Of a stretch of DNA of 64,000 bases, positions 32,701-35,700 are shown piece after piece. This DNA comes from Candidatus Omnitrophota bacterium (GTDB lineage: Bacteria; Omnitrophota; Gorgyraeia; Zapsychrales; Aceulaceae), in assembly GCA_029564765.1 (NCBI GenBank), contig JAKQPK010000075.1, positions 4,603 through 68,602 on the forward strand. Direction: 5' to 3'. The position numbers and the translations under genes are program-made. Every line of letters starts with the position of its first letter. The stretch's first letter is position 1. Below the pieces are notes generated by a model. That model saw only the letters and a list, made by a program, of their open reading frames with translations. It ran no database searches and was not told where the DNA came from.

Positions 32701-35700
32701 ACGATTACCTATGACAATGATTTTTATTTCTTCCCGCTTCAGGTCAAGAATGCCAAGAACCATGTTGTTGCTAAAGAGTATTACGGGGTCAATGGGATTC
32801 CTCTGGATAACGGCGCCGGATATCATGGGCTTTGGGGCCAGGTAAGATCTATCAAGGATCCTAATAGTCAGACAGGCGGCAAGACCTACGATACTTTTGG
32901 CCGCCTTGTCGCGACGGTATCACCTCTCGATTCGATCGCTTTCCCAACAACAAGCGTGGAATACGATCTGACAAGCTCGGGCACAAAGGTCATAACACAT
33001 CAGCGAGAAGCTCATGGAAAACCCGGGACGATCGATACAGTGTCGTTCTATGATGGCCTAGGACGCCTTATTCAATCCAAGAGTGAAACTGGTTATATGG
33101 GGCAATTTGTCGTTAGCGGCCAGACTGAGTACAACTCTCGGGGATTGCCACAGAAGAAATATCTGCCACGTTTTACAAATACATCGATTACAACAGCAGA
33201 CCCAATTGATACAAGCGTTGCACATACGACCATCGCCTATGATGCGATGGGGCGTGCCGTTCAGACGACAAACCCAGACGGGACTTGCGCTACAGTTATT
33301 TATGATGATCTGACGACGACCGCTATTGATGAAAATGGCCACAAGCAAGCTTCTATCGTGGATGCCTACGGCAGGTTCGTCCAAAAGCAAGAATACACAG
33401 GCGCTGACGGTCGCAGCCTTTATTATCCGACGCAAGCCTACAGTCTTTACACGACGACAAATTATTCGTATGACAGCGAAGGAAACCTGACGCAAGTCCA
33501 GGATGCCTTAGGCAATGTGACGACGATCTCCTATGATGCACTGGGTCGCAAGATCGCCATGGATGATCCGGATATGGGATACTGGGAATACGAATATGAC
33601 CCTGTCGGAAATCTTATTTGGCAGAAAGATGCGAAAAATCAGGTCATTACTTTTACGTATGATGAGATTAACCGTCTCACGAACAAAACGGATGGCGCGG
33701 CGCTCAATGTCAATTACACTTATGACGCGACATCACTTATGCCGATAGAAGCTCTTGCCGATGATGATCTTCAAGTCTTATCGGCATCCGTGAATTTTTC
33801 TAAAAGCCTTTCATCTTTGGAAGGCTTGCCGCCAGCACCACCGACGATGGAACCAAATTATGGTATTGGACGCTTGACAAAGGCAAGCTATCCTACGGCG
33901 GATCAAAGCCGATTTGTTTATGATGTTTTAGGGCGGGAGAAGTCCTCGACCAAAAAGATTGACACGGCAAGTTATCAAGTTCGTCGCAGCTATGATGCCG
34001 CGAACCGTCCGATAATTTTGAGCTATCCTGATCAGGCAAAATTAATTTATACCTATAATAACGCAGGTCAAATTGATAGCGTTAGTGAGATCTTACCAGG
34101 AAACTCTCTTTCGTCCGCAAAAGAAGAGGGAGGGAGGATCCAGGATCCTGCTCGATTAGACATGAAAAATTTTTATAACCACCGATTAAAAAAGAGCAGT
34201 CCGGATATCAAGCAAAATATTTTGCAATATCAAAATTCATTCTTTCACAGAAAAGCAGGACAACAGTCTCAAGATAAAGGTGAAATGAAGTTTCTTGGGC
34301 CTGGCGGCAACATCACCTTGACCGTCAATCCTCTCAATCCTGTTCGAGGCGTGAAGCAGCATTACTCGCTTAATGTTTCTTGGTCAGGAGCATATTGGGA
34401 AAACTGGCAATACAGTATATTTGTTGCTCTGATAGGAGGATCCGTATATCCTCCTCCGCTATCATCGAATCCTCCCGGGGCGCTCAACTGGAGTGTATCG
34501 CCTCCAGCCTCATGGAATGGAGATCAAATTAATATTAATACAAATTCTGGATCCATGACGATCGTAAAAGAATTAGAAGCGTATGCATCTTTTAATGAAT
34601 TTATTTGGAGAGCTCAGCTTGTCTGCACCCCTCCATGGCCAGGCGCTACATATTTTCCGAGCTTTAGCCAGATCCTTGTCTCTGCGGCTCCAGATCCTGA
34701 TATAGTCTTAGGCGTGACTCCTCAAAGTCCTCATCCAGCTGTTCTTGCTCGGTATGATTTTGATATTTCCTGGTCCAATTTGCCGATGGGGAATAATTAT
34801 GATTACCGTTTATTTTATACATTGGTTGAGAATAATACGGGTAGCTATTACGGGGCCGCCCAGGATCCCAGCACGTCAAATACATGGCTGGGAGGCGATA
34901 TCGATATCTCGGATGCGAATGCAAGCGGGAATCATATATCCTCAAAGGAGTTGGTCGCATTAAGTCATTGCAACGGTAGCCTTATTACAAGCTATCGATG
35001 GATGGCCCAAATTCGCCGCGTCATATCCGGACAGGCATATGATCCTCATGATCCTCAAACATTCTATACTGTCGCGGAGAAAACCGTTGAAGTCCAGCCG
35101 GGAACAGGGTTAAATATTTCATTAGGTATGAATTACTTCAGACCGATCATTGACCTTGAGAAGCAATATGAGATCGCATTTTCTTGGTCTGATCTGATCC
35201 CTACATTCGACGATCAGAATTATGATTATAAATACTACGTGACCATTCTGGACGCGGATTCCAACTTTTTGGCCGCGACAACAAGTAGCGGCCAGTGGTG
35301 GGAAGAGATGGGGCTAATAACGCAGGCCGCGCCAAGCACGATCGCGATCACAAAAAATTTAACTGTGCAAAATAACGACAGTTCTTCCGCTAATACCGAT
35401 CAGTTTACGTGGGTTGGAGAAATTCGCCGTTATCCACAAGGAGGGAGCACGATATACGATGTTTTGTCAACAGTTACAGAAGCAGTTAATGGAAAAGATT
35501 TGGGTTCGGGTATCTATGTTGTTGATGTTCGATACAGCGCGGCGGGCCAGATCCTTGAGGTTGAGTTTGGTAACAATACCAGAACGACCTACACGTATGA
35601 CCCCAATAGTTTGCGCTTGACGCAGCTTGTAACAAAAAACGTTCAAAACCAGTCCATCCAAGACTTCAGCTACAGCTACGACAGCTCTGGCAACATTCGC

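Follow-up and report, generated by a model that had tools for sequence, protein, structure and literature searches.

Within a 64,000-nucleotide stretch of DNA from a Candidatus Omnitrophota bacterium (contig JAKQPK010000075.1 of assembly GCA_029564765.1, forward-strand positions 4,603 to 68,602; called the window below), one gene encodes a protein of 2619 amino acids that, as read from its domains, is a TcB-TcC (BC) fusion of the RHS cocoon toxin type. We find that this protein carries, between YD repeats of its RHS shell, an insert of three tandem repeats of ~135 amino acids. The repeats constitute an undescribed sequence family of a fold class that is predicted to be ordinary, the immunoglobulin (Ig)-like β-sandwich, and in this protein family the shell loop that holds them is a hot spot where widely differing domains have been inserted. 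The three domains probably form an externally displayed, exchangeable ligand-binding module. The domain family itself is new, as is the recognition of one shell loop as a slot for exchangeable modules; Ig-like and lectin inserts in an Rhs/YD shell were already known from the mosquito protein SGS1, and the fold class is a common one.

Three tandem repeats of an undescribed domain

The gene, the insert, and the shell segments on either side of it are as follows.

29713–37572 (+): host gene, encoding the 2619-amino acid BC fusion/RHS cocoon toxin; from the open reading frame (ORF) list, Pfam, and NCBIfam.
33010–34089 (+): RHS/YD shell directly upstream of the insert, amino acids 1100–1459; ends in ...YTYNNAGQIDSVSE.
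34090–34299 (+): linker of ~70 amino acids (1460–1529), hydrophilic and predicted to be disordered; precedes R1.
34300–34707 (+): repeat R1, amino acids 1530–1665; predicted Ig-like β-sandwich and the fastest-diverging copy.
34708–35112 (+): repeat R2, amino acids 1666–1800; predicted Ig-like β-sandwich.
35113–35517 (+): repeat R3, amino acids 1801–1935; predicted Ig-like β-sandwich, adjoining the shell and the most conserved copy.
35518–36624 (+): RHS/YD shell downstream of the insert, amino acids 1936–2304; includes the Rhs-associated core.

An earlier examination of the letters and ORFs, here called the sequence-only reading, had proposed three tandem ~135-amino acid repeats at 34300–35560, spaced by ~400 nucleotides. 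The near-identical motifs that this reading had pointed out lie in ORF 29713..37572 (+) at amino acids 1550, 1679, and 1817 (nucleotides 34360, 34747, and 35161), with measured spacings of 387 and 414 nucleotides. The proposed span is essentially right, with the best boundaries at 34300–35517 (+) (amino acids 1530–1935). The repeats themselves are borne out by significant internal similarity. In pairwise BLASTP, R1 and R2 are 27% identical over 109 amino acids (E 3e-7) and R2 and R3 are 25% identical over 124 amino acids (E 1e-6), while R1 and R3 match at E 6e-5. Smith-Waterman alignment gave z scores of 9.1, 7.5, and 5.3 for the three repeat pairs when each was compared with 2000 composition-preserving shuffles, the observed score being reached by 0, 0, and 3 of the 2000 shuffles. 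In an alignment of 24 copies (three repeats from each of eight proteins), P11, W25, W63, and L85 are invariant, and Y19, K83, W101, R106, and Y114 are nearly so. R3 carries the conserved sequences YDYKYY, GQWW, and WVGEIRRY.

A tandem repeat was also looked for in this region at the DNA level, and none was found. Because the repeats have no similarity to one another at this level, the triplication must be old. The G+C content of the insert (0.447) equals that of its flanks and thus gives no sign of a recent foreign origin. On the opposite strand, the ORF list contains no ORF of 100 amino acids or more overlapping the repeats.

Structure prediction, which the sequence-only reading had suggested as a check, yielded a confident β-sandwich for each repeat. 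The AlphaFold2 model of R2, computed from the 24-copy alignment, is all-β with nine strands (predicted local distance difference test, pLDDT, 93.7; predicted template modeling score, pTM, 0.87). A model of the whole insert based on eight sequences has three β domains (pLDDT about 80–95) and an overall pTM of 0.63; the linker is predicted to be disordered (pLDDT 26–32 over model residues 1–80). In Foldseek searches, the single domain had no match in the Protein Data Bank (PDB) below E 1e-3. Its best PDB matches all belong to Ig-like sandwiches, with template modeling (TM) scores of 0.42–0.57, and comprise an MSP domain, integrin alpha thigh, complement macroglobulin domains, HAP2 domain 3, a monobody, the fimbrial lectin PsaA, and a repeat of an ester-bond adhesin. 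Among viral models, the lowest E value belonged to an FN3-like PhoD_N domain (1.2e-3, TM 0.50), and the highest TM score was 0.58. The three-domain model matched tandem Ig-like arrays in the PDB, namely integrin legs, C5/CVF/alpha-2-macroglobulin, and a mastigoneme, at E 5e-9 to 1e-6, with TM scores of only ~0.2. FN3, macroglobulin, and integrin thigh-calf sandwiches resemble the repeats in being all-β and in occurring in tandem arrays, but the repeat is longer than FN3 (~135 amino acids and nine strands, as compared with ~90 amino acids and seven strands).

The domain had been called unrecognized. This description holds for its sequence, which has no Pfam or NCBIfam model, but not for its predicted fold. 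No significant Pfam or NCBIfam match was found on single repeats or on the whole insert, and a profile search gave no match of the insert to any PDB chain below E 0.6. Matches of the repeats to Baculo_LEF-3, Fim-adh_lectin (E 0.021), and DUF1522 were rejected as noise, and phage gp5 β-helix fragments in the PDB profile search were rejected at E above 0.6. The repeat does not match Pfam fn3 (PF00041) even at E up to 10; when it was compared by hhalign with 24 FN3 copies from relatives, the probability was 8.9% (P 0.0037) over 29 columns only, and over its N-terminal third its profile has a weak match to the opening strands of the domains in FN3 arrays. No carbohydrate-binding or lectin family (Laminin_G_3, PA14, CBM60, F5_F8_type_C, and others) matches the repeat in Pfam, NCBIfam, or the PDB profile search. 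Nor are there FG-GAP/VCBS or RHS repeat matches within amino acids 1460–1935, and the period of ~135 amino acids differs from ~45 or ~20, in agreement with the earlier statement that these are neither YD repeats nor propeller blades.

Relatives of the domain are rare. Along the lines that the sequence-only reading had proposed, the 24-copy profile was searched against 1.84 billion representative proteins, and gave 13 matches at E ≤1e-3. One of these, P0006, represents the query family itself, and five others are true relatives.

P0121: another RHS fragment.
P0122: two tandem copies of the domain.
P0123: the domain, followed by CarboxypepD_reg and then Dockerin_1.
P0129: the domain, followed by DUF7402/F5_F8_type_C (discoidin-like).
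P0130: a 99-amino acid fragment.

The others (P0124–P0128, P0131, and P0132) seemed at first to be giant proteins packed with the domain, but they were rejected as family members, being arrays of FN3 or Big_13 whose score is the sum of many partial matches, each insignificant by itself. A metagenome scan for stand-alone relatives of the domain found none. Judging from the proteins in which it recurs, the domain is a mobile module of extracellular multidomain proteins. A compact, confidently predicted, and unannotated repeat with almost no relatives in public data deserves a family definition.

A search with the whole protein found 654 relatives, of which 120 are listed; the relatives described here are from those listed, and the sources named for them are mostly Omnitrophota. 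The triple insert is present in at least seven orthologues (P0001–P0007, by local BLAST and hidden Markov model), which are the closest among the relatives listed. They are 88–52% identical to the host protein overall and 93–40% identical in the insert; a source is named for P0007 only, Candidatus Aceula meridiana of the phylum Omnitrophota (taxonomy look-up). The insert was found at 3 loci among 185,579 species (one genome each) and at 5 loci among 241 million metagenome records. A word-index search with the 411-amino acid insert alone returned zero matches, which was a false negative, as the same database holds the seven insert carriers.

The triple insert is under purifying selection. Between the window and a syntenic locus (L001), the ratio of nonsynonymous to synonymous substitution rates (dN/dS) is 0.047 for R1, 0.077 for R2, and 0.25 for R3 (93 codons), as compared with 0.07–0.085 for shell segments and 0.23 for the linker. 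These low values indicate that the repeats encode a selected, functional protein. In L001 the gene seems to be split within R3 into ORFs of 1835 and 760 amino acids. A frameshift or pseudogene was rejected as the cause, as the break (at ~9047–9057 of contig CAZAOD010000017.1, from a metagenome-assembled genome) is a run of ten N and thus a gap in the scaffold. The second ORF produced by this artefact is the protein recorded in the database as P0121.

At greater distances, divergence is faster in the repeats than in the shell and follows a mosaic pattern. Between the window and P0002, identity is 82% in the shell, 76% in R3, 57% in R2, and 37% in R1. R1 is 31–37% identical to orthologues whose shells are 57–82% identical, and R3 is conserved to about the same degree as the shell; in P0005, R2 is the most divergent repeat. 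The linker is 9–24% identical to those of P0002–P0007 (84% to P0001), against 55–84% for the shell.

A shell loop occupied by many different inserts

The location of the insert between YD repeats of the RHS shell, as the sequence-only reading had it, agrees with the RHS_repeat, YD_repeat_2x, and Rhs_assc_core matches that flank the insert on both sides. RHS_repeat matches the host protein in seven stretches (Pfam, E 2.4e-44), and YD_repeat_2x matches it in NCBIfam. The upstream shell was assigned from RHS_repeat and YD_repeat matches, matches to solved Rhs shells, and the conserved junction; the downstream shell contains the Rhs-associated core at 36370–36624 (amino acids 2220–2304; NCBIfam TIGR03696, E 3.5e-22). 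Just before amino acid 2304, the sequence reads RYYDSALGRFLTPD and PVNITDPTG, the latter of the form PxxxxDPxG; the two are a putative aspartyl autoprotease-type motif pair of Rhs and TcC proteins (as defined in PMC7861908). Alignment to solved BC and Rhs cores begins only after the insert: the flank that follows it aligns to residues 1867–2190 of TcdB2-TccC3 (4o9x) and to the cores of YenC2 (4igl) and RhsA (7q97). Because of the match to 4o9x, the insertion site is assigned to the TcC-like half of the protein, ~370 amino acids before the Rhs cleavage site. A location at the junction of TcB and TcC, suggested by the length of TcdB2 (~1470 amino acids), was rejected on the same ground.

We projected the two flanks of the insert onto 106 relatives. 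The number of residues between the flanks is 17 or fewer in 56 of the 106, 45–69 in 4, and 160–1200 in 46. The junction is common to all of them (...Y.YN.AGQI..V, insert, (Y/F)V.NV.YNA.GQI..I.YGNG...), and its alignment with relatives lacking the insert places the segment between YD repeats of the cocoon. P0008, which ranks eighth among the relatives, has only 10 amino acids at the site; its best local alignment, covering 53% of the query, is 57% identical. An inserted repeated domain of this size inside an RHS cage had been considered unusual. For this clade that does not hold: among the 44 nearest relatives, 40 carry a large insert at precisely this position, and Ig-like carbohydrate-binding module (CBM) and lectin domains have been solved in the Rhs/YD shell of mosquito SGS1 (PMC9935623).

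The content of the site differs greatly among relatives. In a Pfam scan of nine sampled inserts, seven contained known modules and two had no significant match. The families in the seven are Laminin_G_3 (in one or two copies, one of which also matches the clostridial neurotoxin receptor-binding N domain), fn3, PA14/GLEYA, CBM60, GH115_C, Big_7, and InlB B-repeat (Flg_new_2). These are extracellular modules that bind ligands, mostly carbohydrates, or that are associated with adhesins. A further unannotated unit of ~225–235 amino acids with the sequence GDNR(V/A)L(I/V)V occurs in inserts at the site, with two copies in P0028 and one each in P0035 and P0017 (in the middle of P0017); Pfam gave nothing significant on it. 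Separately, Hint/intein-type Pfam families (PF07591, PF14890, PF01079, and PF05203) are listed among the precomputed domains of the related BC proteins P0010, P0020, P0027, P0030, P0033, and P0041.

Interest in RHS cocoons extends from their role as natural toxins to their use as programmable capsules for protein delivery. Since one loop of the shell accepts anywhere from 0 to 1200 additional residues, it offers a ready-made engineering site for retargeting them.

Probable display and binding, weighed against the alternatives

The sequence-only reading had suggested a surface-exposed receptor-binding module. We infer both the outward location and the binding, and the context favors them: binding-type modules occupy the same loop in relatives, dockerin and discoidin-like modules neighbor the domain elsewhere, and the repeats diverge faster than the shell. 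The Tc cocoon lumen, as seen in the TcdB2-TccC3 and YenBC structures, has capacity for roughly one unfolded toxin of ~30 kDa. A lumen that already holds the 315-amino acid C-terminal region could not take up to 1200 amino acids of folded domains as well, and the module is thus likely to be on the outside. The three domains would project from the exterior of the cocoon, preceded by the disordered linker, and would bind to the target cell, the ligand probably being a glycan or a protein of its surface. The toxin capsule would thereby be tethered to its target before release of the C-terminal toxin. For a cocoon that has no TcA gene within the 64-kb window, the module would in this way take the part played elsewhere by the receptor-binding domains of TcA, or by the CBM and lectin domains of SGS1, and would be exchangeable in evolution much like the C-terminal toxin. 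The locus bears on how a BC cocoon lacking a TcA partner finds its target.

Several observations weigh against a displayed binding module. The matches by structure are generic and weak (best E 1.2e-3, TM ≤0.58), Ig-like domains often serve as mere spacers, and no family known to bind carbohydrates or proteins matches the repeat. In the comparison of the two closest genomes, conservation of the repeats equals that of the shell and gives no sign of diversifying selection. A TcA gene could also lie elsewhere in the genome.

One alternative is that the Ig-like domains are a passive spacer, strut, or shell-stabilizing decoration without a specific ligand, tolerated by a loop that accepts insertions. 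The folds matched are those of leg- or stalk-type Ig-like domains (integrin thigh and calf, macroglobulin arrays, and mastigoneme), no known binding family matches the repeats, and the conservation of R3 at about the level of the shell is what close packing against the shell would lead one to expect. However, the chain re-enters the shell after R3, and it is hard to see what purpose a spacer would serve if it ended in nothing; moreover, bona fide ligand-binding families (Laminin_G_3, PA14, and CBM60) occur at the same site in relatives. The recurrence of the domain beside dockerin and discoidin-like modules in unrelated proteins, and the strong purifying selection on all three copies in eight proteins, also fit a passive role poorly. 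We consider such a role unlikely.

A partner in the producing cell is another candidate for what the domains contact. A fixed partner is difficult to reconcile with the great variety of unrelated modules at the same position in close relatives, with a relative (P0008) that lacks any insert, or with how steeply R1 and R2 diverge when the shells of the compared proteins are 82% identical. The module would in this case dock a component of the producer, such as a translocator replacing TcA, a surface structure or pilus, or the neighboring 547-amino acid protein, and would have a role in assembly or display rather than in recognition of the target. An ORF of ~550 amino acids does precede the BC gene directly, and is conserved, at all four loci (the window, L001, L002, and L003); the absence of TcA nearby might call for another delivery partner; and in classical Tc toxins the shell-inserted TcB propeller is a partner-docking element (PMC9935623). 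We judge this explanation a little more doubtful than that of a spacer. That the insert lies inside the cocoon as a second cargo or plug, released or rearranged on activation, is highly improbable, given the up to 1200 amino acids of folded domains in the same loop of relatives, a lumen limited to ~30 kDa of unfolded toxin with the 315-amino acid cargo already present, and repeats that are predicted to be stably folded β-sandwiches with relatives in extracellular multidomain proteins containing dockerin.

Externally displayed ligand binding by the triple Ig-like module also allows a broader and more tentative proposal. BC-fusion cocoons, mostly from Omnitrophota, may use one shell loop as a slot for exchangeable targeting cassettes (LamG, FN3, PA14, CBM60, Big_7, the triple Ig-like module, and at least one other domain that has no name) and so be polymorphic at this loop as well as at the C-terminus. 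They might then be self-sufficient, TcA-independent, cell-binding capsules of predatory or parasitic nanobacteria, and the ~135-amino acid repeat might be a new ligand-binding family in which R1 sets specificity. Omnitrophota have been reported as predatory bacteria in published work, and the locus with its relatives suggests a testable hypothesis on how they address their toxins.

Host protein, related systems, and neighboring genes

The remaining features of the host protein and the gene that follows it are listed here.

29983–30465 (+): SpvB/TcaC N-terminal domain, amino acids 91–251; Pfam PF03534, E 1.7e-29.
31054–32145 (+): FG-GAP β-propeller region and TcdB middle/N domain, amino acids 448–811; Pfam.
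36625–37569 (+): C-terminal variable region, presumed to be the encapsulated toxin, amino acids 2305–2619; no Pfam match.
37569–37874 (+): ORF of 101 amino acids, a candidate immunity or accessory protein by position only; overlaps the stop codon of the toxin gene.

The likely true start of the host gene is the ATG at 29731, and a putative Sec-type signal peptide, MNRSFGLAIVIFSLFVVAPVVVCA, was read by eye at the N-terminus. In the propeller and TcdB region, Pfam E values are 1.3e-14 for FG-GAP_3, 7e-7 for FG-GAP, and 2.1e-21 for TcdB_toxin_midN (amino acids 684–811). By its domain sequence, the protein is predicted to be a single-chain, secreted TcB-TcC fusion cocoon with a 315-amino acid variable C-terminal region. 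It shares with the Tc BC cocoons TcdB2-TccC3 (4O9X) and YenB-YenC2 (4IGL) an SpvB_N domain, a propeller, TcdB_midN, an RHS shell, an Rhs core in which the autoprotease motif is present, and a C-terminal toxin that varies. Unlike these, it has a putative N-terminal signal peptide, and no TcA-type domain was found in the 16 neighboring and large ORFs scanned within the 64-kb window. Natural single-gene BC fusions are known and have been mentioned in passing (PMC7861908).

The closest precedent for the insert is SGS1, whose Rhs core aligns to the host protein. In the cryo-electron microscopy structure of SGS1, Ig-like CBM, lectin carbohydrate-recognition, and wedge domains are encoded by segments inserted into Rhs/YD repeats and decorate the exterior of the shell as putative receptor domains (PMC9935623). 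The SGS1 shell holds C-terminal hydrophobic helices, and the variable region of the host protein likewise opens with a Gly/Ala-rich hydrophobic stretch of ~175 amino acids. The likeness drawn here consists in insertion between YD repeats; no sequence similarity of the insert to any PDB chain was found. SGS1 is eukaryotic and has single, different domains at several sites, whereas the Omnitrophota protein has a triplicated domain at one site.

The receptor-binding domains of TcA are Ig-like or β-sandwich modules set in a conserved scaffold, vary among species, and serve in cell-surface and glycan recognition. Their likeness to the repeats is proposed as a functional analogy, the scaffold being an α-helical TcA shell in one case and an RHS cocoon in the other. 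Variability of the TcA outer shell is described in PMC6795518.

In polymorphic toxins such as Rhs and CdiA, the polymorphism that has been described concerns the toxin tip and its immunity gene. Exchange of the C-terminal cassette likewise occurs at the Rhs core between the window and L001, and the cassette-like variety of the shell insert among relatives is comparable to this exchange. Our literature search found no account of such inserts, or of a recurrent insertion site, in bacterial BC proteins, and no second variable cassette inside the shell of polymorphic toxins.

The exchange is apparent from the alignment of the two loci. L001 is syntenic with the window, with 85–93% nucleotide identity on both sides of a replaced stretch in which window positions 36582–39473 are unrelated to L001 positions 10465–11768. 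The break begins at the Rhs core, which indicates that the C-terminal toxin and the sequence following it have been exchanged between the window and L001. An ORF for an IS200-like Y1 transposase is located at 38114–38641 in the window's version of this stretch. The C-terminal region is 14–35% identical to those of most orthologues aligning there (81% to P0006), against 55–92% for the shell. Its opening Gly/Ala-rich stretch (36625–37150, amino acids 2305–~2480) resembles glycine zippers, and the remaining ~140 amino acids have no family match. The different C-terminus of P0121 also opens with a similar Gly-rich stretch. The 101-amino acid ORF that follows the toxin gene has a weak match to a BamE domain (E 7.8e-4), below the Pfam cut-off.

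The upstream ORF of ~550 amino acids, located just before the BC gene in all four loci, has the following positions.

Window, 27146–28789: 547 amino acids.
L001, 1132–2784: ORF of ~550 amino acids.
L002, 1125–2783: ORF of ~550 amino acids.
L003, 1527–3194: ORF of ~550 amino acids.

It has faint BNR/Sortilin-type matches only, and its product may be a functional partner of the BC protein. Elsewhere in the window, the G+C content falls to 0.38–0.39 at 14001–18000 and 24001–26000, below the window average of ~0.45.

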